This document shows, in pieces, positions 12,600 to 34,917 of a stretch of DNA of 64,000 nucleotides. A model generated the notes under the pieces. That model did no database searches. It was not told where the DNA came from and worked only from the letters and a program-made list of their open reading frames with translations. Each line of letters begins with the position of its first letter. The first letter of the stretch is position 1. A program made the position numbers and the translations under genes. Source of the stretch: Candidatus Woesearchaeota archaeon (GTDB lineage Archaea; Nanobdellota; Nanobdellia; Woesearchaeales; ARS49); the NCBI GenBank assembly GCA_016203395.1, contig JACQMV010000035.1, positions 415 through 64,414 of the forward strand. The letters run 5' to 3'.

Positions 12600-13529
12600 A
12601 TGGATTACGACGTATTAATCATAGGTGCAGGAGCAGCAGGACTAAGCGCTGCTATCTACACGTGCAGAAAAAAACTGAAAACAACAGTTGTAAGCATTGA
12701 TACAGGAGGGCAGACAAACCTAACAAGCAACATAGAAAACTATCCCGGAACAGAGCCAATGCACGGACACGAATTAATGAAAAGATTCAAAACTAATGCA
12801 CAAGCCCTCGGATGCGAGTTCATAAATGGAAAAGCAACACTTGTTGAAAAAACACAAGAAGGATTCAAAACAACACTTTCGCATGGAGAAAAAATACTCT
12901 CAAAAACAGTAATAACCTGCTTTGGCAAAGTTCCAAGAAAACTAAGCATTTCCGGAGAAGAAAAATTTGCCGGAAGAGGAGTTTCCCAGTGTTCATCATT
13001 GCAGCCGGAAGAATGCACAAACAAAACAGTTGTAGTAATAGGCGGAGGAAACAGTGCAGTAGAAACTGTAATAAAACTCTCAAAGTACTGCAAAAAAATT
13101 CACTTACTCCATAGACGGGATACTCTGACAGCAGATGAAACGAGTATAGCAAAACTAAAAGAAATAAAAAACATTGAATACCACTTAAATACCACTCCGC
13201 TAGAAATCACAGGAGACAAAAAAGCAGAAACAATAAAAATAAAAAACAACACTGAAAAAGAACTACCTGTTGATGAAATACTAATAGAAATTGGCTACAT
13301 GAACGATCCAGGCCCTGTCCAACACCTTGTTGATATAAATGAAAAAAAAGAAATAATCATAAATGAACGGTGTGAAACAAAAACAAAAGGACTATATGCT
13401 GCAGGAGACTGCACAACAATCCCATTCAAACAAACAATAACGAGTGCAGGAGAAGGAGCGAAAGCAGGTTTAGAAGCACACCGCTACCTCACAGGAGGAA
13501 AAGGTGTCACAATAGACTGGACACATTAG
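12600..13529 (+). CDS. Thioredoxin reductase-like FAD/NAD(P) oxidoreductase lacking the canonical CxxC
   Basis: IIGAGAAG, IENYPG, GRGVSQCSSL, IGGGNSA, LYAAGD. Confidence 0.85.
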   Translation: MDYDVLIIGAGAAGLSAAIYTCRKKLKTTVVSIDTGGQTNLTSNIENYPGTEPMHGHELMKRFKTNAQALGCEFINGKATLVEKTQEGFKTTLSHGEKILSKTVITCFGKVPRKLSISGEEKFAGRGVSQCSSLQPEECTNKTVVVIGGGNSAVETVIKLSKYCKKIHLLHRRDTLTADETSIAKLKEIKNIEYHLNTTPLEITGDKKAETIKIKNNTEKELPVDEILIEIGYMNDPGPVQHLVDINEKKEIIINERCETKTKGLYAAGDCTTIPFKQTITSAGEGAKAGLEAHRYLTGGKGVTIDWTH

Positions 13530-13610
13530 TCAAGCCACGAAAACTGCTAAAAAAGAAATACAGCCACAATTCTTACTGAACAACAGATAAATTAACACCT
13601 GACTTATTAT

Positions 13611-14669
13611 TTATATAATTACAGCAGAAGAATCTGATGTTCGTGTAAATATAGTTGATGGCTTATCCTTGAGAAAATCAAATGAGTATAGCCGAACAGT
13701 TTCCTCGCCACTTTTCAGGTCAGAGAGATAAGCATCAAGAAATTCCTGAACTAATTCATCCTGTGTTACTGGTTGCAATAACACAACCTGTTCCTCAAGC
13801 GGCAATTCATTTAGAAGTGATGGCTCTTCTTTCAACAGCGAATACACCAAATGACTTTTAGCCAATACTTTTCTTACTTCAGGAGAATTGACCTTCAAAT
13901 GATACTCAACACCATTCATTTTTGATGCATCAATGTTTAATTCTACAAAAGCAGCACCTTCCATACTTTTCAATCTGTTTTTTACTGCTTCATTGCTTAA
14001 CTTTACGAAATTTGCCGCATACAACTTGCTTAGCACTTTGTTCCTAGGAACTAAAGAGCCCTGAAATTCTGGAATAACCGGCTGGTTATGCGTTGCCATA
14101 AATAAACTATAAAATCCATTAAAGTGAGCTGTTTTACTGCCATTACATGAAATCTGATAAGATTTTGTTTCAAACTCCATCTCTAACAAATCAGGCCTTG
14201 CAAAGCCATCTATACCGCCAATTTGTGAATTAATTGTAGAAGCAGTAGTTAGCACTTCTAACATTAGTTTGTCATCCAAAATCATATACGGATTACGTTC
14301 AATATCCAAAATACGTCCAGACAAGTTCTTTATTTGCTGCACAGTCCCTTTTGAAGAATCCCAATTAATCCTGACACGGTAGCCCTGCTGCAATGGCGTT
14401 GTTTCCAATCTGCCAATCAAACAGTCGTTCTTAAGAACGCGAGCAATAATCCCTTTATTGCGTGAATAAAACTCGCGAAGTATCATCTGAAAATCAATGC
14501 CAGAAAACCTTATTGCGCAATCATAATCTGCATCAAGCTGGGATAGCGTTGCCAGAAGAAAAACCTTATCCTTAGCAACAAAACCACTAAAGTCAAGAGA
14601 TTGCTCACTGAAACCAGGCAATACTTGCGTAAGCATGTCAAATTCCTTTTGATTAATACTTACTTTCAT
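13611..14669 (-). CDS. Hypothetical protein, last gene of the ClpX/GHKL operon
   Basis: 352-aa ORF overlapping the upstream gene; GAGGT SD-like sequence before ATG. Confidence 0.75.
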   Translation of the reverse strand: MKVSINQKEFDMLTQVLPGFSEQSLDFSGFVAKDKVFLLATLSQLDADYDCAIRFSGIDFQMILREFYSRNKGIIARVLKNDCLIGRLETTPLQQGYRVRINWDSSKGTVQQIKNLSGRILDIERNPYMILDDKLMLEVLTTASTINSQIGGIDGFARPDLLEMEFETKSYQISCNGSKTAHFNGFYSLFMATHNQPVIPEFQGSLVPRNKVLSKLYAANFVKLSNEAVKNRLKSMEGAAFVELNIDASKMNGVEYHLKVNSPEVRKVLAKSHLVYSLLKEEPSLLNELPLEEQVVLLQPVTQDELVQEFLDAYLSDLKSGEETVRLYSFDFLKDKPSTIFTRTSDSSAVII

Positions 14670-17400
14670 CTGCTACCTCACGTTCATAAAATTCATACTT
14701 ATCAGATTCTTGTATTACCTTTTTAGCAACCACACTCAACGCTCTGCAAAGGTTTCCATGCGCAAGAGCTTTCTCCTCATTAATAAGTTCAAATATCGCA
14801 GGAGCAGAATAACTGCGTATGAGCTTTGCCCTTGTTTTGTAAAACAAGCTCTGAGTAAGTTCAGAATTAAGCTGCAAACCCTTGGCTTTACTGCCAAACA
14901 CTGCATTAAACAAAAACCTGCTTCTTGATGCCTCATCCATTACTTCAAGCCGTCTTACAAAAGCAGCATAATAACAATTTTCTACCAAAAACTCGGCCTG
15001 ATTTAGCGTTGCTGCAAAAGCAACCTCATCAGGATAAGCATTTCCAAGCCAAAAATCCAGTTCATTTCTTCTACCTTTTGATACAATCCTGCAAACAGCA
15101 CGCATTCTTTGAAAATCATCCAAGCCACTCAAGTAATTCTCCAACTTCAATTTGTTATTTTTGGAATAATAAAACAATGCAACAGCAGAAGGAGAGTTAT
15201 CACAAGCAAGCATGGCTCTTTCAAGCATTTCTGCATGCACTTCCAGTGCGTGATCACGTGATACGCAATCAGAAACAACGCCCTTGGCGTGGATTAACGG
15301 AATTAACGCATAAACCAGTTCTGGAATTTTTTTGTCGGCAACCAATACAAACTCAGAAGCATTCCTGCCAATACCAACGTGGAGGCCTTCATAATCCTGC
15401 TGAACTAATGTGTGTTTGTTATTAAAATGCATGCCGCACTCCTGACAATGGTTGAAATCAATCAGATTAAAACCAAAACCATGCATGTCACTCAATGCAA
15501 AACTCATCATTCTAACTAATGACTCCATTCTCGCCTTATTAGCTTCATTAATCGCATGCCTTTCATATACTCTTCTCTCAAAATAATTCCTGAGCATTCT
15601 ACTCACAGCAAAAGAATCTGATTTTTCCTGAGAATCAGCATCCTGCGTATGACGTGTTGCAGCATGCTTTACTGCATTAAATGAAGGCACTAAAACCTTT
15701 GTAGTAATAAAAGAATGACGCGCACTTTCTGACACTTTTTTGCTTGCAGATGCGCAATTATCAATCAAATAAGCTGAACCTTGCTTTATTGCATTACCTG
15801 CTGAACAAGACGCATCAAAAACCAAATTGTATGCACGACTAACTGCGCCTTTTACTCTCCTATAATTTTTCCTTGTAGAATCCTTCATTCTATTAATTGA
15901 TTTCTCATTCTTAGCAATAACTTCATTTCCAAAATCATAAGCAACATTTGTTGCCTTAGCAGCAACATAGCCAGTCAAACAAACACCGCCAATTGCTCCG
16001 CACGCAATTGCTCCTGTAGAAACAACATCAAGAATCACATCACCCACACTATATGCATTAACTGCCAATGCGCCTGCTCCAGCAATGTAAATTCCTGCAG
16101 CAGAAACAGTTTTTATTACCGGATTATTAATCCCTGAAAAAGGAGCGAGCAAAATATTAGCTCCTTTTTTTGCATGCTTTCCTCCAATGCACATGGCACG
16201 AGTGAGTGTGGCTTTTCTCTGCACATTACACAAGTAAGAATCATAATCCTTAATAGGAATATAACGCGATGGAGTGCAAAATATGTCAAAGAATACTCTT
16301 GTAAAGTCTATCTCAGAGAAATCAAGCACAAGCCCATCTCCTTCTTCAGGCAGTGTATTTTCTCTTGAAAAAAACAGTATCTTCGATCTCTGGTTAATAC
16401 TAAGAAAATCTGAGATATCTGCCAAAGAAAGTTTTCTGTTATAAACATCCTTAAAAACATCTGCTGTCACAACTGCGCTTTCAAGATCACCGAGCCGGTT
16501 ATTTCTTGCCCGGAGACCAATTACTTCCAATGGCAAATTAGACATAATGCCCTTTGCTAAAACCCCAAAGGGCTCATGAAACTCCTTATCATCAGGATGC
16601 TCAATAAACTTCTTTACAATCTCCAGATTCAACAAGTAAATGCCCTTTACTGCAGACTGTGTAAGATCCTGAACTGTTTTTTCTGATTCAAGAGCAGCAG
16701 TTGAAGGAACCATTGGAATATCCGGACTGTCAATAATAACATATTTTCCTGAACCAATAGTGCTTGTTGCACTATAAACAAGAACGTTGTTTCTGAGCAA
16801 CAACAGCTTACCTGATACTCCTTTTTGTTCTTCACAAAGCAAGCCAGCAACAGCTCTTGTATTACCTGCACTAAAATCAACTACACACCTTGATTTGATA
16901 TCAATATTAACTTTTTTCTTTCCAAGATATACTGGAACAGAACTGTATTTGCACCGTTCTATAATCTTGGCAACTGCGTTATCGTGAGACCCTTCTCGTT
17001 TCTTAACAACAACATGCATGCCGTTTTTTAAGGATGATTTCTCAAATGTCTGATGACCGAGAGCATCAATACGAAGCTGAACAGCACTGCCATTGTGAGC
17101 ACTATCAAGAATAATTTCCAACGGACTTATTGCAAATGCAGAATACACCAGTCCGGGAATGTTAGAACTGCCTGCTTGTGTGGTAAACGCCTGTTTGAGA
17201 GATTCTTCGCTAATACCCTCGCCATCTGAACGAACAGAAAATTCAGAAGCACTGCAATTAACTCTGACCTCGCCGGGTCTTGTCTGCATCACTAACTCAA
17301 CAAGAGCAGAAGCATACGCGCCCGGTTCCTTATCTGTGCACTGACCCAGCTTACGTGCCCTGCTAATAACATCCACTGTGTAAGGAAAATCTTTATTCAT
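14653..17400 (-). CDS. Degenerate GHKL/HSP90-like ATPase-domain protein with central hydrophobic helices (paralog 2)
   Basis: N-terminus MNKDFPYTVDVISRARKL...ALVELV...VRSDGEGI parallels the upstream paralog; Asn box and G2 box degenerate; Gly/Ala-rich hydrophobic segments mid-protein; GGAGG before ATG 17400. Confidence 0.6.
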   Translation of the reverse strand: MNKDFPYTVDVISRARKLGQCTDKEPGAYASALVELVMQTRPGEVRVNCSASEFSVRSDGEGISEESLKQAFTTQAGSSNIPGLVYSAFAISPLEIILDSAHNGSAVQLRIDALGHQTFEKSSLKNGMHVVVKKREGSHDNAVAKIIERCKYSSVPVYLGKKKVNIDIKSRCVVDFSAGNTRAVAGLLCEEQKGVSGKLLLLRNNVLVYSATSTIGSGKYVIIDSPDIPMVPSTAALESEKTVQDLTQSAVKGIYLLNLEIVKKFIEHPDDKEFHEPFGVLAKGIMSNLPLEVIGLRARNNRLGDLESAVVTADVFKDVYNRKLSLADISDFLSINQRSKILFFSRENTLPEEGDGLVLDFSEIDFTRVFFDIFCTPSRYIPIKDYDSYLCNVQRKATLTRAMCIGGKHAKKGANILLAPFSGINNPVIKTVSAAGIYIAGAGALAVNAYSVGDVILDVVSTGAIACGAIGGVCLTGYVAAKATNVAYDFGNEVIAKNEKSINRMKDSTRKNYRRVKGAVSRAYNLVFDASCSAGNAIKQGSAYLIDNCASASKKVSESARHSFITTKVLVPSFNAVKHAATRHTQDADSQEKSDSFAVSRMLRNYFERRVYERHAINEANKARMESLVRMMSFALSDMHGFGFNLIDFNHCQECGMHFNNKHTLVQQDYEGLHVGIGRNASEFVLVADKKIPELVYALIPLIHAKGVVSDCVSRDHALEVHAEMLERAMLACDNSPSAVALFYYSKNNKLKLENYLSGLDDFQRMRAVCRIVSKGRRNELDFWLGNAYPDEVAFAATLNQAEFLVENCYYAAFVRRLEVMDEASRSRFLFNAVFGSKAKGLQLNSELTQSLFYKTRAKLIRSYSAPAIFELINEEKALAHGNLCRALSVVAKKVIQESDKYEFYEREVADESKY

Positions 17401-20038
17401 CAGAATCCTCCAAATAACTCTCCCATGATAGCGTTTCATGAATCAAAAAACGCGGTTGATCTTTAAGCAATTCCTTAACAACCCTATACTCATTATGTTC
17501 AGCCAATCTCTCGCGGATGAAACGCACTTTTGTTGATACACACGTCCCTTTTTTGTTTTCTGCTATACGCCTAACAACGCGGTCTGTTGCGTTCTCTAAA
17601 TCAATTCCAATAAAATTAACTGAATCGGCAATGTCGCGCATGGACTCTCTTGTCGGTTCATGGCAGAAATACAATTCAAAAGCAAGACCCATTCTTTTGT
17701 CACAATCCAGCAACCCGTATCTTGTCAAAAACGCACTCCTGTGATTTCGTTCAAGAAGCATAGCCATATTATTCGGAGTAATACTTGCGAGACGCTCAAC
17801 TTCTAAAGGAAATGCAGAAGCGAGCCATTCATCAATAACAGGAAAACGTTTACTAACATCATGCAAAAGCGAGTGGATAACTGCATTTTTTCTGGTATAA
17901 TCAAGCCATCTGATTTCTGTTTCTAAGCGAGAAAGGTCTTTCTTCGCATACCATTGCCTAAAGAATTCAGTAGGAGGGTAAACTAATGAATCAATACAAG
18001 TCCAAAGCACCCTTGAATTTATGTTTGTTGCATCTGCATAAGGAGATTTTGCACGTGTTGCTAATGCATGAGCAAGAGGAATTACTGTGTAAGCAAATGC
18101 GTTATCCTCCTTAATAGCGCTGACTAACTGCTGAAGTTCAGGGTTGTTACCATTCAAGCCAAAATGAGGATGCTCCGATCTACCGTCATTAAACATAGCC
18201 ATTAACTTCTTGCTCTTACTCAACACAAGATGAAACGGACATTCATAGCAATCATTTATTCTATCAACCCCTTTAGCGACAGTGTCCAAAACAAGTATTA
18301 AGTCAGCAAATTCTCTGGCTTTTTCTATCCTCTTCTTTTCTTCCTGTGCTTTTTCATCCTCTGCTGTTTTATTCAGCGAGTTTGAAAGCCACTCAAAAGG
18401 AGTTCTAAACATCTTACCAATATCAAACTTAGCTATTTTGACAGCACGATCTGCTGTACTTTCCAACAAAGGGGCGTATTTTTGCAGTTTTGAGCTACAA
18501 CTTTGTTTCAACCTGCGAATCCCCTCTATGTTCCTGTTAACAACGTAGTAAACGCCTGCTCCAGCAGCACCAGCACTTGCGGTAGTTGCTCCTGCAGCTG
18601 CAAGCAGCTTTAGTGCAGGTACAATATTCTGCCCCATATCAAACGTGCTGTATGCAAGCAAGCTAATACCCGAACCATAAGTCACGAGCGCAGTAGCACA
18701 AGCAGCTTTTTCACCAAGCAATTCTTCAACCTTTTTAAAAGGATGCATTAAGAAATTTGCTTGGGCTAAATACCTCACCCGAGTACGCTCCAAATACTCC
18801 TGCCTTCTCTGGCCAAAAGCAGCGTCTGAAATATAGGCATCATAATCCTGCACAGCACACCTCCAACTCGGGCTAGTAGTAGAAAAAATATAAGGATTAT
18901 CGCCTTTTAAAAGCAGGATAACAAATGGTTTTTTAGTGTCCTTTCTATGCGTATAAAAAATAATGCCTTTGTGTTGCTCCATCCTCTGCCTTTCTAAATC
19001 ATATATTGAATACACCCTGCCTTCATTATCGCGAAAAACCCCAGCAAGCAGTACGTGCCTCTTAATATCTGACAAACTGAGAGTGTTAGGATGGTCAAGC
19101 GATATAACACCAGCAACACTACGATACGCTTTGATACTTGATTCTGCCCTATCAAAAAAGAACCTTTTCGTAAATGTTCTTTCATTCACAAAAGGAGAAC
19201 GAATGTGCTCGTCAATAATCCCTTTTTCAAGAGCTTCCATTGCTTTGCCAACAACTGCTTTCAACAGGGTTACCTGCTTATCCTGCTCAAGCGAACGCCC
19301 GATACTAAACAATGGAAGTGTATCACAGTTTGCAATACCCCAAAAATCTTCATAACCCCATTTAAGATTCCCTATACTAATCCCTTTTCTAAGAACTCTA
19401 GTAGTGCCATAACAAGGATGGTCATAATGCGATTCTCTTGATTCACCCGTTCCTACAACACCTGTTATCCCTGAATCAGTAAATTCTTGCACAACACAAC
19501 AAGGAAATTTTAGTGGCTTGCTTAACTGTTTTTTCCCTTGAAATATCGGGGCAGTTGAATACAGACACTTTTTTCTAATACAAGGTGTTTCGTAATCAAA
19601 CAATGAATGAGTATTCTTTTCAACCATTACAAGTATTCCATTATCAAGAGAGCCAGTGCTGAAATTAGGATTGCCATTTTCATCAATTTCCAAACGCGTT
19701 TTTTCACCTCCCACAGAGGATTCAAGAAATATTCTTTTTGGACTGATTGCTAAAGCAGACATAAGCAAAACAAGAAGCCCTTCTGCTTTTCCAGCATCAA
19801 TAGCACTGCTGCCAGATGCGTAAATATCCTCAAGCTCTTTTCTTGTAAAACCGCCGGAAGGTGAGCGCACTCCAAAGGTGCTTGAAGTTCTACACAAGAC
19901 CATTCTTGAAGGATTGGTTTCTGCAACGAACCGAACAAGATTAACCGCATACTGCGCTTTATCATTTGTTTGATACATTGCCAGCTTTCTTACTTTGCTT
20001 GCCAAGTTCACCTTATACGGAAAATCACTGTCTGGCAT
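17393..20038 (-). CDS. Degenerate GHKL/HSP90-like ATPase-domain protein with central hydrophobic helices (paralog 1)
   Basis: MPDSDFPYKVNLASKVRKL...; shares ALAISP--I-LES, KCLYSTAP, VF-D...S--D and DYDAY blocks with 14653-17400; hydrophobic hairpin LVTYGSGISLLAY / AAGATTASAGAAGAGVYYVV. Confidence 0.6.
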   Translation of the reverse strand: MPDSDFPYKVNLASKVRKLAMYQTNDKAQYAVNLVRFVAETNPSRMVLCRTSSTFGVRSPSGGFTRKELEDIYASGSSAIDAGKAEGLLVLLMSALAISPKRIFLESSVGGEKTRLEIDENGNPNFSTGSLDNGILVMVEKNTHSLFDYETPCIRKKCLYSTAPIFQGKKQLSKPLKFPCCVVQEFTDSGITGVVGTGESRESHYDHPCYGTTRVLRKGISIGNLKWGYEDFWGIANCDTLPLFSIGRSLEQDKQVTLLKAVVGKAMEALEKGIIDEHIRSPFVNERTFTKRFFFDRAESSIKAYRSVAGVISLDHPNTLSLSDIKRHVLLAGVFRDNEGRVYSIYDLERQRMEQHKGIIFYTHRKDTKKPFVILLLKGDNPYIFSTTSPSWRCAVQDYDAYISDAAFGQRRQEYLERTRVRYLAQANFLMHPFKKVEELLGEKAACATALVTYGSGISLLAYSTFDMGQNIVPALKLLAAAGATTASAGAAGAGVYYVVNRNIEGIRRLKQSCSSKLQKYAPLLESTADRAVKIAKFDIGKMFRTPFEWLSNSLNKTAEDEKAQEEKKRIEKAREFADLILVLDTVAKGVDRINDCYECPFHLVLSKSKKLMAMFNDGRSEHPHFGLNGNNPELQQLVSAIKEDNAFAYTVIPLAHALATRAKSPYADATNINSRVLWTCIDSLVYPPTEFFRQWYAKKDLSRLETEIRWLDYTRKNAVIHSLLHDVSKRFPVIDEWLASAFPLEVERLASITPNNMAMLLERNHRSAFLTRYGLLDCDKRMGLAFELYFCHEPTRESMRDIADSVNFIGIDLENATDRVVRRIAENKKGTCVSTKVRFIRERLAEHNEYRVVKELLKDQPRFLIHETLSWESYLEDSDE

Positions 20039-22058
20039 TTTCAAGCTCCATAAATTTTTTGAAAAACCTTTTTTGAAACCTATGCGGATTGCCACTCAGG
20101 TAATATCTTGAAACTCCTTCAGTATACAACAAACTAATTGCGAAATAAGCAGCAAAGCATGGCTTTTTTGCATAATCATACTTTTCTGCAATAGCCATAA
20201 GCCGCCTTACTGTCGGACTGTTGAGGTTCACATAAACCTCTGTTTTACCTGACAATCCGAACTCAGACATGCTGATAAGATTCTGACCGCCAGAAGAGCC
20301 ATATCCTGCTTGCAGAAAACTGAAAGGAAAATCTTTTGTTTCGTTCAACACCTTTTCAGCCATAACCTCAACAATCTTTTTTCCAAGGTCATACTCCCTT
20401 ATTGCCCCTCTAATCAAATCACAGAACCTTTTTTCTTCAGCACTCAAATTCTGTGCTGTAACCTTTGACATAAACCTATACTGTTCTTCAACTTTCTTAA
20501 CCGTAACAATCTGGCTAAGAAATTCTTCAGGAAATGTCGAAGCAGAATCATACAATTTTGTTCTTATTATCGTTTTTCCTGCCTTCTGAAGCGCACTTGT
20601 AAGATCATTATGAGAAGCAGCAACATACACTACTTTGTTCTCCTTTGCCAGTCTCAAGACATCAGTAATAGACAAACACTCTCCCTGAGTTGTTTGAAAA
20701 ATACGGCGCTGAAGACAATCAGCAGGCAGGAATTGCCATACTTTCTTTTTCCGCACAATCTGAAAACTTCCTTTCTGAGTAAGCTTGCCTACCTGAATAT
20801 CGTAATTTTCCTCATACACTGTTGCAGTGCATTCCCGCAAAGGCAGAAAAGAACGAGCATGCTCACTCTGTGCTACTGCTTTAAGCTTGAGTTTTTTCAA
20901 ATGATTTGAAAGTGTTTCCAACAAAATGGAATACTCCTGAGACAATTCACCAATTTCTTTGTAAAAATCGTAATCTGTTGAATGCCTCTGACGTAGTTGT
21001 TGCACATTCATTGTTGTTATTTCCTCTAAACGCCTGTAAATCTGCTTTACAAGAAGCGGCTCCTGAGCACGAACAATTGCTAACGCATGCTCAAAATAAG
21101 AATCCCTCATTGCCTGCGTTCTGTCAATAGTGTGTTTAAACCTCGGAGATTCCAATAGCACAGACCACGAGTCGTTGGTTAAATTCCTGCCTTGTTCAAT
21201 AGAAATACCGTGCTCCTCAATCTGATAATCTGCAACAGCACGTTCATTATTACGCTGTTTTCTCAGTGCAATAACTCCTTTCAAATCACCGCTTGAAAAC
21301 TTAATCTTTGCAACAGCATCCTCAATATCAAAGGGCCGGTTGATTGTCATTTTATTGATGTACATAGGAATTTCAATATGATGTGCCCGTGAAGTAACCT
21401 CAGACATCATTCTGCTGATGAAATCAACTGCATGATGCTGCGCATCAAAATGCCTAACAAAGATTTCTCTTGTTCCACGATCTTTTGGCTTTGTTTTTGA
21501 CAAAGCCGGATCAGTAATAAGGTCATAAACATAATTCAGCGATTTAATTGAAAATATCTGCTGATTGAACTGGTCTTCACGCCCGGTAACATTCGTAAAC
21601 CGCGCCTGCCACCACTCAGCGTCTTTTGTTGATTCAATAGCATACACGTCAGGAAGCAGTTTGAAAACTGATTTCCCTCCAATACCAAATTTGCCTGCTT
21701 TTGTTACATCAAACTCCTTGGCTGAAAAATACATGTTAAAAAACCTACTGTCACGGTCCTCATGAGTCATGCCTATACCATAGTCCTCAGATACTATCAT
21801 AACTGTGAAAAGAGAATTGCCACAATTTGCTTTAAACTCATCAAGCATACCCAATCCGGCAAGCCGTGAGTCTCTTTCAGCATCTGGCTTTTGCTCATCT
21901 AAAAAATACCACCAGTCTATCTGAGGCGTTTCTGAATCACGATGATTCTGAACAAGCTCTACCCACGCCATTTCAGCCCTTGGAAACTGGTCAACAACCT
22001 GCTCAAGATTTCTTCTGGCATCCTCAAGAACAGGATCATCAAGAACAAACTGCGTCAT
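20025..22058 (-). CDS. GHKL (HSP90/HtpG-like) ATPase
   Basis: Intact Bergerat-fold motifs: ELVQNHRDS (N box), EDYGIGM (G1), AGKFGIGGKSVF (G2), RGT; C-terminal VYVNLNSPTVRRL resembles the HSP90 middle-domain motif. Confidence 0.85.
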   Translation of the reverse strand: MTQFVLDDPVLEDARRNLEQVVDQFPRAEMAWVELVQNHRDSETPQIDWWYFLDEQKPDAERDSRLAGLGMLDEFKANCGNSLFTVMIVSEDYGIGMTHEDRDSRFFNMYFSAKEFDVTKAGKFGIGGKSVFKLLPDVYAIESTKDAEWWQARFTNVTGREDQFNQQIFSIKSLNYVYDLITDPALSKTKPKDRGTREIFVRHFDAQHHAVDFISRMMSEVTSRAHHIEIPMYINKMTINRPFDIEDAVAKIKFSSGDLKGVIALRKQRNNERAVADYQIEEHGISIEQGRNLTNDSWSVLLESPRFKHTIDRTQAMRDSYFEHALAIVRAQEPLLVKQIYRRLEEITTMNVQQLRQRHSTDYDFYKEIGELSQEYSILLETLSNHLKKLKLKAVAQSEHARSFLPLRECTATVYEENYDIQVGKLTQKGSFQIVRKKKVWQFLPADCLQRRIFQTTQGECLSITDVLRLAKENKVVYVAASHNDLTSALQKAGKTIIRTKLYDSASTFPEEFLSQIVTVKKVEEQYRFMSKVTAQNLSAEEKRFCDLIRGAIREYDLGKKIVEVMAEKVLNETKDFPFSFLQAGYGSSGGQNLISMSEFGLSGKTEVYVNLNSPTVRRLMAIAEKYDYAKKPCFAAYFAISLLYTEGVSRYYLSGNPHRFQKRFFKKFMELENARQ

Positions 22059-23037
22059 CTTTCACCCCGGGAATTACAAAAACACGCTCACCAACAAGAA
22101 TGTTTTTTGTTGAAACATAATAACGAGACAACAGTTCCCTAAATTCTGTTGAATCCCTGCTTGAATGATTCGCAGAAACCTCTTTTGACATGACTGCTAA
22201 AGCACAACCATCACCAATTGAGGAAAATACTTTGAAAGCAAGATCATCTGCCTGAATAGTTCTTTGAGTGACGCTCGTTGCAGGAAAATAAAAAGGGCCT
22301 ATTGTTGACATCGTAACCCTCAAAGGGCGTAAGTTTTTGTAATGCTGTATTATCTTAAAAAGTTCTGAGGGCTCAACATGATAAGCGCGCTCAAAAACAG
22401 AACGCAAAAAACTGCACAATTCAACACCATCAGGAGAAAACCTTATTTTGGCTTTTGAAAACAGCTTTTCAACATAAGCCATTTCTGCTGTATACTTCAC
22501 AAACAAGTTTTTTGTCACATCAAAACCATCAATAACAACATCAATTCCGTGCTCATTCTGCGTCCTGCCACTGTAACTAGCAGCAATGGAAATTAAAGCA
22601 ATGAAAGGAAAGTCTTTGACACGCTCATAATACTTTCTCATCTTCAAACTCTTTCTTGGAGCGTCTAATACGCTGAGAGATGGAACAGTAATTTCGGACA
22701 ATGTCTGCTTTACAAGCCCAACAACCTTTTCAGTATTATGAGTTCGCGCAAGACTATCACTGGCAATTCTTTTATCAACCTCTAATGCCATATAACTTCC
22801 TCTTGTCGGAAAACCAGATTCTAAATCAACCTCCAAACCATCATGAATTTTACAGGCAATCGCCGAAGTCATTAATGATAAGGAATCAATAATGTATTCT
22901 GTATCAGGATACCTTGGAGTAAGAATGCCCACTCTCTGCGAATGCCTTAAAGCAGAGAATAATAAAGAAAGATAATCTAGCGATTCCTGACTGGAAAATC
23001 TTTTGACAGGGGTTTCCAAAACAGGGTGTTGTAGCAT
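22039..23037 (-). CDS. Hypothetical protein in the ClpX/GHKL operon
   Basis: 332-aa ORF overlapping the GHKL start; conserved-looking motifs LESGFPT and IGPFYFP. Confidence 0.75.
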   Translation of the reverse strand: MLQHPVLETPVKRFSSQESLDYLSLLFSALRHSQRVGILTPRYPDTEYIIDSLSLMTSAIACKIHDGLEVDLESGFPTRGSYMALEVDKRIASDSLARTHNTEKVVGLVKQTLSEITVPSLSVLDAPRKSLKMRKYYERVKDFPFIALISIAASYSGRTQNEHGIDVVIDGFDVTKNLFVKYTAEMAYVEKLFSKAKIRFSPDGVELCSFLRSVFERAYHVEPSELFKIIQHYKNLRPLRVTMSTIGPFYFPATSVTQRTIQADDLAFKVFSSIGDGCALAVMSKEVSANHSSRDSTEFRELLSRYYVSTKNILVGERVFVIPGVKDDAVCS

Positions 23038-23054
23038 AGCATCATTTTTTTTTC

Positions 23055-24251
23055 TTATGGTGTATCTTCTTCTTTCGGTGAAGGGAGCTTTTTTACGTAT
23101 TCACTAAGCCCGGTTCCTTGCGAGTCAGCGGCAGCAAGATATCTCTGCACTGCAGAAGGATTGCCTTCTCTTAGTGACTGAAGTGTTGCAATAAGCGCCT
23201 GTTTCGCGCCTCCCTCATCAGCTACTAGTGCCTGGAGCGCGCTTTCAGCTGCCTGGTTGCTTGCATCAATAATGTCAGGAAGGAATACCTGAGAACTAAC
23301 TAATCCTTCATGATTCTTTGCAAGAAGTTCAAGTGACTGTCCGGATGCCTTCATTGTTGCATTCAAAACTTTATTTAGGTCAGTATACATTCCCGCAGTC
23401 TTCTCATATAGTTCTGCAACCTTTGCTAACTGAGTCATCTGTTTAAGCATTGGACCTTTTTTATCCAGTGTGCTTCCAACTTTAGCAACTTGATCAATAA
23501 GCATGGCTGCATAAAGCGCTAACTGTTGAGCTATTGCCCTGCTGCTTTCTATATCCTCAACAAGTTCATAAGTTCTTGATTTAGCAACAGAATTATTTAT
23601 TCTTGCTTCTTCAATGCTCTGCTCAAGCAAACTAATGGCTCTATGTAATTCTATGCCTTCTGTAGGCAATTCAGCAGCAGGAATGTTTTTATATTTTTTG
23701 AATTGCTCAGTTGCTAGCGCATATTGTCCATCAAGCTCTCTCCCATACTTTTCTATACGCTCTCTTGTTTTTGCAAGACCAACAAGTTCATCTTCTGCCT
23801 GGCTGATACTTGTTCTTAATTGTTTAAGCGTACTTAATATTCCTTCATCATTCTCAACATAGGTTCGTATAGTTGCAATGCGCTCTCTCGTTTTTGCAAT
23901 AAAACTTTCAAGAAATTCATTAACTTCCTGTCTTGCAAGATAACTGCCTAGCCAAGGAACTTTATGAACCAGAGCGTTGCCTGCTTCTTTTGCACTTTCC
24001 CATCTTTTTCCCTCTGAAAATATCCCTTTAACTGCAGGCAGAAACTCTTCGTGTTTCTTGACTGTAGCTGCGACCATGGTTCTGACCTCTTCCCATATCT
24101 TACCTGTTTCGCCCATAACTTTTTCTGCTTTTTTCCTTTTCTCAGCCCTTTCCAGTGACGCTTGTTTTGATTCTGCAATTAAATTAGTAAGTTCAGGTAG
24201 AGCAGCATTTGGCTCGGAAGTCATAAGTGATAATTTTCCTGAATTATTCAT
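23055..24251 (-). CDS. All-helical coiled-coil protein, TelA (toxic anion resistance)-like
   Basis: Long heptad-rich helices; KVPWLG segment and P-LKQ...LN--LN pattern resemble TelA (recognised by eye only). Confidence 0.55.
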   Translation of the reverse strand: MNNSGKLSLMTSEPNAALPELTNLIAESKQASLERAEKRKKAEKVMGETGKIWEEVRTMVAATVKKHEEFLPAVKGIFSEGKRWESAKEAGNALVHKVPWLGSYLARQEVNEFLESFIAKTRERIATIRTYVENDEGILSTLKQLRTSISQAEDELVGLAKTRERIEKYGRELDGQYALATEQFKKYKNIPAAELPTEGIELHRAISLLEQSIEEARINNSVAKSRTYELVEDIESSRAIAQQLALYAAMLIDQVAKVGSTLDKKGPMLKQMTQLAKVAELYEKTAGMYTDLNKVLNATMKASGQSLELLAKNHEGLVSSQVFLPDIIDASNQAAESALQALVADEGGAKQALIATLQSLREGNPSAVQRYLAAADSQGTGLSEYVKKLPSPKEEDTP

Positions 24252-26043
24252 TTTTATTGCCTGCCTTTTGCTTTAGCTTTCGCTTAACATAGCTATTTAA
24301 ATAAGCATCAGGATTGTTTAAGAAATCTTTAGTAACTGTAAACGTATCTTGTTTTATAAGCTTTAAAGCATACGGAAGAGTGGCTGTTGCGCTTTCAAGC
24401 GCACTAATAAATGCCTGCGGCCTCAAAGCATCAAATTCTATTCCTTTAACATTAATCCTCAAAGCAATGTCTTCTTTAGTAAGATACTTTCTTGCAAATC
24501 CTCTAAAATAGTGCTGTATGAAAAAGCAATCACTCTCTGCTTTCGGCTCCTGCACAAAAGAAGGCGAGATTCTCACATTATTAACTCCTGTTAATCCAGG
24601 AAGACCGGTTCTTAAATGACAAAGAACGTCCTCAGTAACAGTCATTATTGACCTTGCACCAAGCCCAAGAGAGTGCGCTTTTTTGGCCATTGCTCTTAAG
24701 GCATCATCATCAAATTCTACACTAACACCTGTTGCAGAACGTATCAGATTCTGCTGTTGCTTCAAAAGAGAAATATCTGACTCAGTCATTATGCGCAAAA
24801 TGTCATTTTCTGTAAGATCATGAAATGGAGCAATATATGGAAGACGACCAACTAACTGGTGAAGGAAGCCATACTCGGTAAGGTCCTGTGAACTAACTTT
24901 TGTTAAAAGCCCATACTTTCTTGCACTAGCAACATCGTTTGTTTCTCTCTTAAACCCTACTGTCTGTTCTCCTAAACGTTTTTCAACAATGTCTTCAATA
25001 CCTTCAAAAGCACCACCTAAAACAAAAAGAATGTATTTTGTGGATATTTTTCTCTGATTGCCGAACATTGTTGTCAGTGGGTTATGATCAGGTAAAGCAT
25101 CAATCAAGCAGTTTTCAAGCATTCTCAAAAATGTTCCCTGAGTTTCTTTTGAAAACCAACCACCCACTCCTTCAGTGCCTTTTACAAGTTTGTCTGCCTC
25201 ATCAATAAAAATAACGCCATAAGGCACAAGAGAATGATCCTTTGACTGCTTGTATAATTCCCTTACTGCATCAGTAGCATCTTTGCCGTAAATTCCTGTT
25301 GGAGTAAACTGGGTTGCATCAACTGCAAGAAAAGGAAGACCTACTACTTTTGCAAGAGCACTGACAAGCGAAGTCTTACCAACACCAGTTGAGCCGATGC
25401 ACAAAACACCACCTTTGCGATAATCTGGAATTTCAGCTCCTTTAATTGCTTGCTGAACAGCACTTGCATGATAAAAGAATGCATTAGCCAATACCTGTTT
25501 AGCCCCATCCTGACCAATAATAGTTTTGTCAAGGGCGGCAATCATTTCCAAAGGCAAAGGGCAGTGTGTGAGAGATTTTGGCTGAGCAGATACTTTATGT
25601 TCGGCTTCAGAAACAGGAGATTCTGGCTGAAAAAAAGGAGAGTTCTCAAATATCTCTCTGAACAGGTCCTTAGGAAATAAGTCCTCAGGAGAACCACTTA
25701 ACTTTCTCATGTTTTTCAACACCTCTTTGAGCATTTGTTCCCTTTTACCTTCTAAAATCGGCCGCACCTTATCTGGAGGAGGTAATTTATTATCTACAAC
25801 AAGCTGATGAAGTTTAGAATACATTGTTGAACCGTCATCTTTTTTTGAAGGAGCATAGCCAAACCTTTGGTCATATCCGTCAACAAACGCGGTTATTCTT
25901 CCTTTCACAAATGGCTTTGCTGCCCTAGTTAAGAAATTTGTTGGCATGCTATCAATTTCATTCATAATTGCTTTTGCATACGCCCTTACTTTTTCCGTCT
26001 CTGATAACTTATCCCACGCAGGGTCCTTTTCACGGTCAGCCAT
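24244..26043 (-). CDS. ClpX-like AAA+ unfoldase with a non-zinc N-terminal domain
   Basis: LDKTIIGQDGAK, Walker A GSTGVGKT, DATQFT, Walker B IFIDEADK, LFVLGGAFEG, VGF loop, LVGRLP, LGARS. Confidence 0.88.
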   Translation of the reverse strand: MADREKDPAWDKLSETEKVRAYAKAIMNEIDSMPTNFLTRAAKPFVKGRITAFVDGYDQRFGYAPSKKDDGSTMYSKLHQLVVDNKLPPPDKVRPILEGKREQMLKEVLKNMRKLSGSPEDLFPKDLFREIFENSPFFQPESPVSEAEHKVSAQPKSLTHCPLPLEMIAALDKTIIGQDGAKQVLANAFFYHASAVQQAIKGAEIPDYRKGGVLCIGSTGVGKTSLVSALAKVVGLPFLAVDATQFTPTGIYGKDATDAVRELYKQSKDHSLVPYGVIFIDEADKLVKGTEGVGGWFSKETQGTFLRMLENCLIDALPDHNPLTTMFGNQRKISTKYILFVLGGAFEGIEDIVEKRLGEQTVGFKRETNDVASARKYGLLTKVSSQDLTEYGFLHQLVGRLPYIAPFHDLTENDILRIMTESDISLLKQQQNLIRSATGVSVEFDDDALRAMAKKAHSLGLGARSIMTVTEDVLCHLRTGLPGLTGVNNVRISPSFVQEPKAESDCFFIQHYFRGFARKYLTKEDIALRINVKGIEFDALRPQAFISALESATATLPYALKLIKQDTFTVTKDFLNNPDAYLNSYVKRKLKQKAGNKNE

Positions 26044-26064
26044 TCAAAAGTTATATCTGGATAG

Positions 26065-26072
26065 TTTATAAA
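26065..26072 (-). promoter_or_regulatory. TATA box of the ClpX/GHKL operon
   Basis: TTTATAAA 22-29 bp upstream of ATG 26043. Confidence 0.6.
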
Positions 26073-26109
26073 CCTATCTTAAAAAACTCACTACCGAGTG
26101 AGCACACTC

Positions 26110-26445
26110 CTGCTAAAAATCATCTGAGCAAATAACATATCTGCCTTGCAGCCCGTGCTAATTCTTGTCTTAAATGATGTTATAGGTTATCAGCAGCCAT
26201 TGCTAATTCTTATCTTAAGAGGTTATAACTTATCAGCAATCTTTGTGCTATGATTGTGAACTTTAACGCAATTAGCCGTTTTATTGACAAGAGCAATACC
26301 ATTTGTTGCAAATGATTGCAAACACGGTGCAAGCACATGGTAAGAGCTAAGTATAGCAACAAAACAAGATACCTTCAAACTACTCATCAAGCCACAAGAG
26401 CTGCGAGCCAGATACTAATTTATACACCCGGAGTATTTTTAGCAG
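26110..26445 (+). repeat. Dispersed intergenic repeat, long copy with perfect 11-bp terminal inverted repeats
   Basis: CTGCTAAAAAT (26110-26120) ... ATTTTTAGCAG (26435-26445); duplicated TGCTAATTCTT..TATCAGCA module at 26156 and 26201; core aligns with 9076-9238. Confidence 0.88.
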
Positions 26446-26455: not shown

Positions 26456-27364
26456 TCAATTATTGTGAATGGCTACGATATTAATATTATGCCAGTATTC
26501 GTAGCCGTTTTTGTTATCATACTTAAGCCCGAGCTTGCGTAAGTATGCCATCCATCTTTGATTGTTTAGAATATTATTAACTTTCAAAGGAACATTCTTA
26601 GAACAGAGCGAAACATGCGCATTTGCTTTTTCAAACAACTTAGGACATAATGAAGAAGCATTCACAGCCAAAACGCCCTTTTTGTTTAAATACTTCCGTC
26701 CTTCACTCAGCAGGTGCTCAAGCAAGCCAATTCCCTCATAAGCGTTATCATCAATGCTGTTAGGCCTTGGAACATAAGGAGGATTACATATCAACAAATC
26801 AAATTTCTGCCTGGAAATTATTTGCAAACCATCCCCAACAAGGAATTTTGCACGTTCGTCCTGTATATTATCCTGCGCGCAACGAATTGCATACACATTA
26901 AGATCATTTACGAGAAGTTCATTCATTTCTGGAAGCTTGTGAAGAACATATTTGCTTAAAAATCCAGAGCCGCAACCAATTTCACAAGCAACCCTGAAAT
27001 CCTGCCTATCACAAAATAACTGTCTAAGAGCATTTGCAAAAACCAGGGTATCAATAGAAGGAGACCATACTCCTCTATATGGGGCGCTCGTGTGAACGCT
27101 TATTCCGTCATATTCCATCCATTTTTTTGGAGAACTGAATAGCGAAAATAATGTATCGCGAATCCTTGGAGCCAATTGCGAAATCCGCCAGTTGTCTGTT
27201 ACAAGAACAGGATCATCAAACTCATACACCCATTCTCTCATACTATCAGGATAAGCATGCACTCTTTTGCCGTCTTCCCTGTCCTTGCCCATTATTGATG
27301 CGAGCTCATCGCCATTTGCAAGAATTGCCTGTCTGGTGATAGCGGTATTGAATTGGGTAATCAT
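26456..27364 (-). CDS. Class I SAM-dependent methyltransferase (HemK/PrmC-like NPPY type)
   Basis: VWSPSIDT, EIGCGSG, VNDLN, ICNPPY. Confidence 0.85.
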   Translation of the reverse strand: MITQFNTAITRQAILANGDELASIMGKDREDGKRVHAYPDSMREWVYEFDDPVLVTDNWRISQLAPRIRDTLFSLFSSPKKWMEYDGISVHTSAPYRGVWSPSIDTLVFANALRQLFCDRQDFRVACEIGCGSGFLSKYVLHKLPEMNELLVNDLNVYAIRCAQDNIQDERAKFLVGDGLQIISRQKFDLLICNPPYVPRPNSIDDNAYEGIGLLEHLLSEGRKYLNKKGVLAVNASSLCPKLFEKANAHVSLCSKNVPLKVNNILNNQRWMAYLRKLGLKYDNKNGYEYWHNINIVAIHNN

Positions 27365-28251
27365 GATGACTCCGGCACAATCACATTGAGCGGTTGATTG
27401 CTTACTCTTATTATCGCAGTGCTACCCCTATGAAATTCATAGTTTTCCCAACAGTCAGAGGTTGCAATGCCCTCTGAATCATTCAAAGACTGAAGCTCAA
27501 CAACATCTCCTGGAAAAAGCTCCCCTTCAAAAATGTTTACACCTCTCTTGAACCTATATGGCTCTGTAGCAATAAAAACTGCTTTCTGCTCTGTCGGTGC
27601 AAAAACTCTCCCTTCATTATGCAAGTATCGTACTGTAGAATCATACCATCCGGTGCTCCCTGCACCAGTTGCAAAAATAAACCCTGAATTTTTTTGCTCA
27701 TACTTCATTTCGCCGAGCCTCCCGCGATAAACCAAAACGTGCCTTGACATAAACTCTCTTAGTCTTTCTCCAAAAAAGTATTCGCTCGTACCAAGAGCCA
27801 TTGGCTTATTATCAACAAATCCCTCAAGCCGCGTCCACTTATTTATACGATACTGCTTATTATGAATCCTTTCAATTACCTGTTCAGGAGTTTCAGAACC
27901 CCAACCGCACAACGCGCCTATACTTCTTGAAGGGTCAGAATTAACACCCATAATAGGAATACTATCAAGAAAATGAGTTACGTAAGTAAAACTATTGTCG
28001 CCTCCCAAAGAAACAACTAAGTCCTGCTCTTTAACTGGTTCTTTAAGCCCGGACATTGCAATCATGCGCGCGTCAGGAAGCAATTCAGCAAAACGTTTGC
28101 GCACAAAAAGCTGGTGTTCATGACTGTCAATAATTACTTTCAGGTTTGCACCCTCACTGCTATATTTCTTAACAAGTTCTTCATGCGAAATCCCGAACTT
28201 TTTTCTATCCCACTCATACTTTGATTCCTTTGCAACAATAAGAATCCTCAT
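27361..28251 (-). CDS. NAD(+) kinase-like protein
   Basis: VVSLGGDNSF, GVNSDP-RS-G-LC, SE motif, ATGAGSTGW. Confidence 0.85.
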   Translation of the reverse strand: MRILIVAKESKYEWDRKKFGISHEELVKKYSSEGANLKVIIDSHEHQLFVRKRFAELLPDARMIAMSGLKEPVKEQDLVVSLGGDNSFTYVTHFLDSIPIMGVNSDPSRSIGALCGWGSETPEQVIERIHNKQYRINKWTRLEGFVDNKPMALGTSEYFFGERLREFMSRHVLVYRGRLGEMKYEQKNSGFIFATGAGSTGWYDSTVRYLHNEGRVFAPTEQKAVFIATEPYRFKRGVNIFEGELFPGDVVELQSLNDSEGIATSDCWENYEFHRGSTAIIRVSNQPLNVIVPESS

Positions 28252-29231
28252 TTATCCCTCCCAAGAGAGAGCATTTTCTGAATTGCATTAAGCGCTTTCA
28301 TCCTTACCTCTTCAGAAACGGTTATTTTAAAAACATCATCCTCCAGTGAACGTCTTACCTTCCCAAGAGTGATAGCTTTCATGTACGGGCATACACAGGA
28401 CTCGTCACAACTTTTGTGATTGTAAACTGCAAAAAACTGTTTAAGAGGGTGAGCGCGCTGAAGCATCTGAACAAGTCCGAGCTCTGTGCCAATAATAAAT
28501 TCTTTTTCTGAGGAAGCTCTTACAAAATCCACCATGCCTGTGGTTGATAACACTTCATCAGCCAGCTCGGTAACATCAGGAGAACATTCAGGATGCGCCA
28601 AAACAACAGCACAAGGATGTTGCGCAATCACACTCTCAATAAGCTCTTTCGTAATTGCCTTATGAACAGGACAATAACCTTCCCATGGAATTATTGTCTT
28701 ACTGGTTTTCGGCTGGAAGGAATAATAAAGATTTTTATCAGGAGCAAGAAGCACTTTATCACTATCAACTGCTTCAATCGCTTTTAACGTATTTGCTGAA
28801 GTGCAGATTATGTCTGCATGCGCCTTAACTGCTGCTGATGAATTAATATACAAAACCAACGGCAGCCCGGGATATCTTGCTTTCCATTCAACAACCTTTT
28901 GTTCATCAATAGTATCTGCAAGAGCACACCCTGCTTCACGCGAAGGCAGGAGAACTGTTTTTTCCGGATTAAGAATTTTGGCAGTTTCAGCCATGAAGTG
29001 AACACCACAAAAAACAATTCTATCATGTCTTGTTTTTGTCGCTTGCATACTTAATCCATATGAGTCTCCAACAAAGTCAGCTATCTCGTGCACTTCAGGA
29101 CGCTGGTAGGTGTGACACAACACCAAACAGTTTTTCTCTGCTTTCAAAGAACGTATTGCTAAAACATTCTCCTGCACACTAAGAGAGTCATACGCGTCCT
29201 TATTATTAATTATTTTGAAAGGACTTTCCAT
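28248..29231 (-). CDS. nadA: Quinolinate synthase
   Basis: [44 protein letters not shown]. Confidence 0.96.
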
Positions 29232-29638
29232 TCTTCATACTCCCTCACTCTTTTGTTGTGGTCAAACGCCAACTTAGGAATCTGCGAAAGTGGAAACACT
29301 CCTGCTTTCTTTGCATCATCCTTTCCTATGGGAATTCCTGTTGCACGACCAACAAAGCCAACACTGTTAACATGGGCTCTTGGATCACGATCTGGCTCAG
29401 AATACGCCCTTAGCTGGCAGTCATACAATTCAACATCAAGAGTTGTTTCTTCTTTTGATTCTCTGACTGCTGCTTCCTCAAGAGTTTCTCCCACTTCCTG
29501 AAAACCACCTGGCAAAGCCAACATTCCCTGAAAAGGCGGGTTTTTTCTTGTCACCAAAACAATGCCTGTCATTTTATTATCCTCATAATGCTCTATAATC
29601 ACATCAACTGCTGTTGGAGGATTATTATTATGACTCAT
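29210..29638 (-). CDS. Nudix hydrolase (ADP-ribose pyrophosphatase-like)
   Basis: Nudix box [25 protein letters not shown]; [17 protein letters not shown]; GGAGG before ATG 29638. Confidence 0.9.
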
Positions 29639-32533: not shown

Positions 32534-32586
32534 AACGCGAATAATGATGCCAAACATAAGAGACTTATGTATATACAACTAAAAAA

Positions 32587-34680: not shown

Positions 34681-34917
34681 ACTGTAGGGCAAATATGCCA
34701 TTTGTTTAGCGTATTCTTAGCAAGGGCTGTGGGATTAATACATTACCAAATCAGGTTATTTTTAGGGAAGCAACAACTGGTATTGCTTATGACGATGAGC
34801 GTGTCTGATTGCAGTAAGAATTAATACTGGAGCACAAGAGCAGCATTGCAGATATTTTGTTCAGAGTATTTTTAGCAACTGCAGAAAACATCAAAAATTC
34901 CTTGCGCTTGTTATAGG

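Follow-up and report, generated by a model that had tools for sequence, protein, structure and literature searches.

The window analysed here, a 64,000-nucleotide (nt) stretch of contig JACQMV010000035.1 from a Candidatus Woesearchaeota archaeon (assembly GCA_016203395.1), carries on its minus strand an operon of seven genes, g1 to g7, in a genome of 884 kilobases (kb) that is 88.6% complete. Six of these genes, g2 to g7, are the archaeal version of a modular cassette common to archaea and bacteria, whose core consists of the helical protein g2 and the alpha/beta protein g3. Behind g3, the ATPase slot holds a pair of GHKL proteins (one intact, one or more motif-less), a distinct AAA ATPase or both, and the g7/DUF6638 protein is an optional further member. 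The remaining gene, encoding the ClpX-like ATPase g1, is likely a local addition and not a conserved member of the cassette. The features of the locus are given below, with open reading frame (ORF) lengths in amino acids (aa).

13611..26043, minus strand: operon g1 to g7, seven abutting ORFs of 599, 398, 332, 677, 900, 928 and 352 aa
26065..26072, minus strand: TATA-box-like motif TTTATAAA, 22 nt before the first ATG of g1, a putative promoter element
24244..26043, minus strand: g1, ClpX-like AAA+ ATPase, 599 aa (NCBIfam, PDB and motifs)
23055..24251, minus strand: g2, long helical core protein, 398 aa (profile, alignment and model of a homolog)
22039..23037, minus strand: g3, alpha/beta core protein with no Pfam family, 332 aa (profiles and alignments)
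20025..22058, minus strand: g4, GHKL-A, with an HSP90-like N-terminal ATPase domain, 677 aa (ATP-site motifs and family profile)
17393..20038, minus strand: g5, GHKL-B1, degenerate GHKL paralog, likely 881 aa; the ORF is readable from 20095 (900 aa)
14653..17400, minus strand: g6, GHKL-B2, degenerate GHKL paralog, likely 915 aa; the ORF is readable from 17439 (928 aa)
13611..14669, minus strand: g7, remote DUF6638 (PF20343) relative, 352 aa (profile excluding g7)

The starts of g5 and g6, at 20038 and 17400, follow the shorter database proteins P0002 and P0003, of 881 and 915 aa, and with these starts the successive junctions from g1 to g7 measure -8, +17, -20, -14, -8 and -17 nt. The TTTAWAWA motif stands before 69 of 527 long ORFs of the genome, compared with 0.28 occurrences per kb overall. 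Single contigs from two DNA runs, which belong to one study and one of which is possibly the source of the assembly, cover positions 13389-26216 and 13622-26216; because they span g1 to g7, an assembly error does not explain the gene order. The codon use of the seven genes falls between the 28th and 91st percentiles of 536 genome ORFs and is native. The ORFs, junctions, motif and contigs together confirm the TATA-led run of seven overlapping or abutting minus-strand genes described in a first-pass annotation of this DNA.

Word-indexed searches of 5.8 billion proteins found for g4 and g2 only the proteins themselves, and for the g7 profile one relative, so that the cassette came to light only through whole-genome profile searches. 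A GHKL profile (E-value (E) 1e-5) matched 117 of the 401 genomes of the archaeal order, mostly through weak N-domain matches and with eight genomes marked unpublished in the tally; 20 regions were fetched from the strong matches. In five genomes (G091, G264, G202, G415 and G163) a helical gene and/or a g3 homolog precedes GHKL-A and a long GHKL-B. The g3 profile, which matches 12 of the 401 genomes (about 3%, six of them profile seeds), added a sixth GHKL-type locus (G199), and with L084 and L206 there are eight such archaeal-type loci besides that of the window; one genus accounts for three of them. The gene order of L206 is that of the window and ends in a weak g7-like gene (E 1.6e-5 among 8 sequences), which a search of a larger set at E 1e-3 did not return. 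A second architecture, in which the helical gene is followed by g3, an AAA ATPase and a g7-like gene, occurs in G214, G210, G320 and, on another contig (L072) from its GHKL form, G202. The g3-AAA-g7 order is seen in L071, L072, L073 and L075 and in the bacterial loci L080-L082; in G221 and G078, unidentified genes follow g3.

The system is mainly bacterial. In the phylum of the Kofleriaceae genome G432, which we take to be Myxococcota, the g3 profile matches 39 of 331 genomes. The 39 g3 regions, one per genome, hold a g2-type gene in 32 cases, GHKL-A in 21, GHKL-B in 17, the cassette AAA in seven and DUF6638 in none; these counts are not independent, with GHKL genes on the opposite strand in three regions and some genomes being close kin or repeats of metagenome loci. 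Where at least 1.3 kb of upstream DNA was available, a g2-type gene was present in 30 of 35 regions, and of the 25 regions that extend 5 kb or more downstream, 17 hold GHKL-A. A g2-type gene also precedes g3 in the archaeal and proteobacterial loci. A search with GHKL-A yielded 79 metagenome loci; a clear homolog of g3 is present in seven of them, of which four (L215, L227, L230 and L253) have the order g3-AAA-GHKL-A. Six of the seven genes recur together in other archaea and bacteria, in agreement with the earlier proposal that they belong to one system; the outcome named there as refuting it, a lack of co-conservation, did not arise for these six.

Several arrangements around these cassettes were recorded in passing. 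Two or three small Ala/Gly/Lys-rich proteins with no Pfam family are encoded just upstream of several archaeal cassettes (L040 2320-4749, L084 3673-6025, L073 10864-12259). Directly upstream of two AAA-type cassettes (L071 11771-16291, L072 12047-16588) lie three conserved genes, for a 763-aa Mg-chelatase/MCM-like AAA protein and for proteins of 270-296 and 461-476 aa. The GHKL locus of G202 (L040 4781-20000 and L041 1-3781) holds three alternating GHKL-A/GHKL-B pairs together with a J-domain g2 homolog.

The proteobacterial form was reached through g7. The protein itself gives no Pfam hit at E up to 1, but a profile from which it was excluded finds it as the best of the 62 window ORFs (E 9e-15), two members of that profile, L073 and L075, score above the Pfam threshold of DUF6638 (PF20343), and the g7 family aligns with bacterial DUF6638 members in hhalign at E 4e-4. 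Via these intermediate sequences g7 is a remote DUF6638 relative. Because two archaeal g7 homologs pass the DUF6638 cut-off, four-gene runs annotated as hypothetical, hypothetical, ATP-binding protein and DUF6638 could be located in Vibrio, Sinorhizobium and Shinella (L080-L082). Their second gene is homologous to g3 (E 3e-11 to 1e-8) and their fourth to g7 (E 8e-27 to 1e-23), while the first matches g2 by position and weak chained similarity only. The Sinorhizobium run is interrupted by an insertion sequence; its genes are 81-92% identical to those of Shinella and stand in the same order. This form rests on 10 plasmid-collection records, three of which were opened, and although its genes are annotated, no description of the operon was found in the open-access literature. 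The window differs from it in having three GHKL genes at the slot of the AAA ATPase, a ClpX-like gene in front, and a g7 that is shorter and below any Pfam threshold. SMc02733 may be a tag of the Sinorhizobium operon, an assignment to which we give no weight. SMc02733 appears among the ChvI-bound fragments (PMC3687685).

Like g2 and g7, g3 belongs to no Pfam, NCBIfam or PADLOC family. A profile excluding g3 finds it as the best of the 62 window ORFs (E 2e-20), the archaeal profile finds the Sinorhizobium and Vibrio genes (E 3e-11 and 1e-8), and the alignments reveal the motifs SG(F/L)P and (I)GP(F). The family profile has no sequence match in the PDB. The g3 model is weak (predicted local distance difference test score (pLDDT) 52) and has no Foldseek match; in a wide search its best matches were T-fold enzymes (Z-score (Z) 6-7) and SPFH domains (Z 5.0-5.5), and because these lie within background we assign no fold to g3. 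The ESM Atlas yielded nothing usable for g3 or g7. Of the two genes previously left as unknown, one is a core member of the cassette and the other a remote DUF6638 relative.

The other core protein, g2, had been described as TelA-like. It shares with TelA/KlaB (PF05816) a similar length and an all-helical character, but Pfam and profile tests gave no support beyond this resemblance: there is no Pfam row for g2 at E up to 1, nor for the homologs scanned, and four g2-family profiles compared by hhalign with a single TelA sequence (L315) gave E 0.28-0.86. The TelA Pfam model matched none of five genomes or records, with its control positive in 5 of 14. A profile excluding g2 finds it as the best of the 62 window ORFs (E 3e-11); an earlier, broader profile did not recover it. 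The family has a conserved amphipathic helix that ends in a Pro-Trp-type motif in 27 of 32 homologs. Its best 19-residue hydropathy is 1.22 in g2, with a family median of 1.23, and reaches at least 1.6 in two of the 32 homologs. In G202 the homolog carries a C-terminal J-domain with HPD (E 1e-10), and in G415 a J-domain is weakly matched; the domain is above cut-off in one of the archaeal g2 homologs scanned.

A lead to the fold of g2 comes from the model of a myxobacterial homolog, L333, built from a 32-row alignment that includes g2 (pLDDT 77.5) and forming a long bundle. Foldseek ranks MakA, SmhB and AhlB first for this model, and in a structural second look the top nine rows are all chains of the ClyA family (AhlB/C, XaxA, SmhB, MakA, YaxA, ClyA), aligned over 225-262 residues with Z 13.0-14.9 and a root-mean-square deviation of 3.7-5.5. 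The g2 family profile has no sequence match in the PDB and no sequence similarity to the ClyA family; the family has no strongly hydrophobic segment or spanning head, a feature of ClyA-type proteins; and the partners of g2 are ATPases, not other pore subunits. The resemblance of the L333 model to ClyA-family helical bundles is borderline, and we read the g2 family, from the modelled homolog, as a membrane-binding bundle and not a self-sufficient pore. Chains of the PspA, Vipp1 and ESCRT-III polymers were absent from the listed fold matches of the model, which does not exclude them. The likeness of the cassette to those systems is a functional analogy only, between an amphipathic-helix protein with a possible recycling ATPase here and a polymer with a recycling AAA ATPase there; those systems are not known to contain a GHKL pair.

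Among the GHKL proteins, g4 keeps all ATP-site motifs (N-box ELVQN, DYGIGM, GKFGIG and RGT), as expected of the intact GHKL ATPase it had been taken for. With the GHKL-A family profile, the best 60 PDB rows are all HSP90/HtpG (E 1e-14, profile positions approximately 80-267), and g4 homologs match the NCBIfam HSP90-family and sacsin models below cut-off. Of the 27 A-type proteins, 18 contain a loose N-x-x-H-P-type motif as in HtpG, a count that has no chance control. In the GHKL-A tree, g4 groups with G091, G264, G199 and L206 on a long branch (bootstrap 85). The likeness of g4 to HSP90/HtpG and sacsin-like GHKL proteins is one of the N-terminal ATPase domain, and its family profile matches nothing in the PDB outside that domain; unlike HSP90/HtpG, it is encoded with motif-less partners within a fixed operon.

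These partners, g5 and g6, are paralogous to each other (24% identity, E 5e-41), and a GHKL-B profile without window members matches them at E 4e-9 and 3e-19, respectively, among the 62 window ORFs. In both, the N-box Glu and Asn are replaced and the G2 box is lost. All 27 A-type rows keep the motifs, compared with an N-box Asn in none of the 14 B-type rows that aligned there (12 of 26 did not align at the N-box). Each paralog also has two Gly/Ala-rich segments, at approximately residues 445-490 of g5 and 428-473 of g6, with 19-residue hydropathy means of 1.27-1.33 and 1.51-1.86; such segments are present in 11 of 12 archaeal-type GHKL-B proteins. The first-pass annotation had described two degenerate paralogs with hydrophobic hairpins; homology and motif loss bear this out, but the segments are only moderately hydrophobic. 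A hydropathy scan found no hydrophobic N-terminal export signal in g2 to g7.

GHKL pairs were also met in other settings. A second cassette type within this archaeal order consists of a MoxR-like AAA protein, a 260-300-aa unknown protein, a vWA-like protein and a GHKL pair, some of the names being based on motifs (L006 3016-12064, L044 1-6844, L045 5234-15557, L046 6413-15991); its long GHKL member has several Gly-rich hydrophobic segments. At L004 10640-16039 and L039 140-4428, receiver-like genes precede a pair whose first GHKL protein has an extra N-terminal domain. In Kofleriaceae-like loci (L091 2-3478, L092 92-4018, L093 6001-9927) a protein of approximately 1300 aa replaces the g2-g3 core before the pair, and those of L092 and L093 contain a P-loop, and at L029 (G270:C3) a GHKL match lies inside a 13,997-codon open frame encoding a giant protein.

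At the head of the operon, the AAA+ core of g1 (residues 152-497) matches solved ClpX (PDB, E 2e-49) and retains Walker A, Walker B, the arginine finger and the VGF loop, features of the Clp-type core, so that its earlier identification as ClpX-like is sound. It scores 228 bits against the NCBIfam ClpX cut-off of 359. In contrast to the ClpX of ClpXP, g1 has no cysteine cluster in residues 1-150, and so no zinc-binding N-domain, and carries an additional 95 C-terminal residues. Neither its N-terminal 150 aa nor its C-terminal 95 aa has relatives in the fetched loci, these extensions do not match the N-terminal part of the cassette AAA, and an internal repeat of the small domain is not significant (E 0.02). 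No PF00574 match, and hence no ClpP, was found in the 88.6% complete genome, with the control positive in 12 of 14.

ClpX-like genes occur in 26 of the 401 genomes of the order, a tally that includes three marked unpublished (G405, G401 and G147); apart from this tally and that of the GHKL profile, nothing here draws on unpublished genomes. The 20 regions fetched around the other ClpX-like genes have varied neighbours and no cassette genes, and a clpP-like neighbour stands beside only one of them (L191). ClpX was found upstream of none of the six other GHKL-type cassettes with at least 2.6 kb of upstream DNA (G091, G199, G202, G415, L084 and L206) and in none of the 39 myxobacterial g3 regions, and these counts do not support the earlier treatment of ClpX as a defining member. 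Because ClpX is absent from the six other cassettes and cassette genes are absent from the 20 ClpX-like regions, the seven-gene combination is so far unique. As a separate observation, L186-L205 hold orphan ClpX-like genes with varied N-terminal extensions, spread over 25 other genomes of the order and mostly with no adjoining clpP.

Two views of g1 are possible. The operon has no cassette AAA, the best genome match to the AAA profile being a 789-aa ORF of different size, and we give near even odds that the ClpX-like protein was recruited into this vacant role. Falling just short of an even chance, g1 may instead be a chance neighbour under a common promoter, functionally unlinked to the cassette, an explanation that concerns g1 alone and is compatible with any of the functional readings below. 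The absence of ClpX from other cassettes and the varied company of other ClpX-like genes speak for it, as does an AAA gene unseen in the fetched DNA of 14 of 21 myxobacterial GHKL-A regions. It accords less well with the 8-nt overlap of g1 and g2 behind a single TATA motif, with an AAA+ ATPase lying beside a cassette that lacks its own AAA, and with the presence of a ClpX-like gene elsewhere in four of the six other GHKL-type genomes of the 401-genome sample versus 26 of 401 overall, a comparison made after seeing the data and in which three of the four genomes are from one genus.

The operon is flanked by thioredoxin-reductase-like genes and by nicotinamide adenine dinucleotide (NAD)-salvage genes, names based on the sequence. 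The minus-strand run upstream, at 26456-32578, reads as NAD metabolism, its translations being what we take to be NAD-kinase-like, NadA-like, NUDIX, PncA-like and PncB-like proteins; a methyltransferase is the sole member of the run that was scanned against Pfam. On reading, the flanking ORFs of 9000-31000 include no recognisable defence genes, and no secretion genes adjoin the operon among the window ORFs. Upstream of g1, at 26108-26407, lies a dispersed non-coding repeat of about 200-300 base pairs (bp), with more copies in the window near 9031-9241, 34402-34684, 49362-49522 and 61721-61878. It gives 99 blastn matches of at least 100 bp, the query counted, which are 69-86% identical and lie on 42 of the 60 contigs of the genome, and read depth is about tenfold higher at this repeat. 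It matches no Rfam family and its fold is unremarkable (z 0.24); it looks like a family of miniature mobile or regulatory elements.

We propose that g2 to g7 form an ATP-driven machine that assembles and dismantles a membrane-binding oligomer of the helical g2, a tentative reading of sequence and model to which we give somewhat less than an even chance. Within it, control of a helical protein with predicted membrane binding by an HSP90-like ATPase with intact motifs and its motif-less copies is likely. In this mechanism g2 would dock on the membrane by its amphipathic helix and oligomerise like ClyA-type bundles, with no spanning segment of its own, and g3 would be its fixed adaptor. GHKL-A and GHKL-B would pair as an asymmetric clamp of the HSP90 type, with ATP turnover confined to A. 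This clamp would license g2 assembly, and the Gly/Ala-rich segments of archaeal GHKL-B may hold it at the membrane. An AAA+ ring would recycle the g2 oligomer; in the genome of the window, a ClpX-like unfoldase, with ClpP not found, would have moved in front under the same promoter to replace the missing cassette AAA. Membrane upkeep or remodelling under envelope stress is the likeliest purpose.

This proposal is favoured because g2 and g3 are paired as a core, the ATPase slot is exchangeable and the GHKL pair combines an active with an inactive member. Its membrane part draws on the Pro-Trp-type amphipathic motif (27/32), the GHKL-B segments (11/12) and the nine top-ranked ClyA-family chains, its link to chaperones on the J-domain of the G202 g2 homolog, and its housekeeping aspect on the NAD-salvage neighbours, the native codon use and the 81-92% identity between Sinorhizobium and Shinella. 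A more specific version, rather improbable as a whole, would make the cassette a new class of membrane machine found across myxobacteria, proteobacteria and archaea of the Woesearchaeota type. In it, a heterodimer of one active and one inactive HSP90-like subunit would gate a ClyA-fold protein that lacks a pore head, and an interchangeable AAA+ ring would reset that protein; the inactive archaeal subunit would supply membrane-inserting hairpins, and a ClpP-less ClpX would have been recruited here as motor.

Several observations weigh against the proposed machine. For the fold lead, no Foldseek row for the L333 model reaches E 0.001 (best 1.6e-3), a wide fold search scores XaxA (Z 13.2) about the same as a designed bundle (Z 13.0) and little above a BAR domain (12.2), and L333 is tied to g2 only via an intermediate, since the deep profile finds the L206 protein at E 7e-6 and g2 at E 0.23. 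For the clamp, a PDB search with a 24-sequence GHKL-A profile gives, at E up to 1, no row that covers the middle or C-terminal domains of HSP90, a difference from HSP90/HtpG, and myxobacterial GHKL-B proteins are mostly without Gly/Ala-rich segments, as is that of L206. The GHKL pair may be a general module, because it also occurs without the g2-g3 core, in Kofleriaceae and other loci, behind MoxR-vWA-like or receiver-like genes. For the motor, g1 has GIYG and not GYVG at pore-1, and its pore-2 region is replaced, further departures from the ClpX of ClpXP. Finally, a conflict system would account equally well for the patchy distribution, the rapid divergence and the number of GHKL copies, which rises to six in G202.

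The main rival is accordingly an anti-virus or programmed-death system, in which the GHKL pair would be a sensing switch, g2, once triggered and aided by the hydrophobic GHKL-B segments, would permeabilise the cell's own membrane, and the AAA or ClpX ring would arm or reset the complex; we regard this as doubtful, but not negligible. The ClyA-family matches of the g2-homolog model suit such an effector, although a hydrophobic window of 1.6 is reached in only two of 32 g2 homologs and domain scans found no nuclease, NADase or other effector domain in any part. The patchy distribution (12/401 and 39/331 genomes), the GHKL expansions, the same pair behind MoxR-vWA-like genes and a divergence so extreme that protein searches brought up a single relative of g7 and none of g4 or g2 are what a conflict system might show, but the high Sinorhizobium-Shinella identity and the absence of recognisable defence genes from the flanking ORFs are not. 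In favour of this rival, a recent preprint states that in immune systems an HSP90-like NTPase domain can take the place of a STAND switch, and that MoxR ATPases assemble immune complexes (bioRxiv 10.64898/2026.10.19.760177). Against this, PADLOC-DB 2.0 (2023 library) yielded shared-domain hits only, namely IetA/mad8/TRIP13 (AAA), TmtA (GHKL) and LmuB/DruC (coiled coil), with no system-specific model matched by several operon genes.

It is unlikely that the cassette is a set of soluble chaperones without a function at the membrane, in which the GHKL pair, an AAA or ClpX ring and DnaK (via the J-domain in some) would act on g3, g7 or an unlinked client and g2 would be a coiled-coil scaffold. The HSP90-like N-domain, the ClpX-like gene with ClpP not found, and a g2 fold match within the range of generic helical bundles are all compatible with it, and the J-domain fusion in G202, weak in G415, would provide the DnaK link; that domain is above cut-off in a single archaeal g2 homolog, however, and the amphipathic motif and the hydrophobic segments of archaeal GHKL-B are left unexplained. 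Contact with or attack on another cell, with g2 and the GHKL-B hairpins remodelling or opening a host or prey membrane and the ATPases loading and recycling them, is more improbable still: the GHKL form does occur in a phylum of myxobacteria and in archaea with small genomes, among whose members are predators and host-attached cells, the Gly/Ala-rich segments are largely specific to archaeal GHKL-B and the ClyA-like fold lead would fit, but g2 to g7 have no export signal, no secretion genes lie beside the operon, the cassette is found in only about 3% of the genomes of the archaeal order, and the core is also present in Sinorhizobium.

We found no description of the cassette in the open-access literature; subscription journals and bioRxiv supplements lay outside this search, and a supplementary table could list the neighbourhood. 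The first-pass annotation recognised no named system in this gene combination, which agrees with our search, and its proposal of an undescribed ATP-driven, membrane-associated machine holds up in that the cassette is conserved, apparently undescribed, and contains ATPases and predicted membrane-binding parts, but not in the membership of ClpX and TelA. In our judgement the cassette is a new kind of system, and its ClpX-led arrangement a local variant.

Taken together, these results join families known in databases only as hypothetical, two of them without a Pfam model, with DUF6638, a divergent AAA ATPase and an HSP90-like active/inactive pair into one recurring system of archaea and bacteria. 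The ClpX gene is a side story, one of the orphan ClpX-like genes scattered through the archaeal order. The four-gene core form is present in Sinorhizobium meliloti, which is genetically tractable, and a cassette from an uncultured archaeon thereby becomes testable. If the fold lead holds, the system would be a case of ClyA-type bundles that work within the cell under the control of ATPases, and of HSP90-like pseudo-ATPases in prokaryotes.

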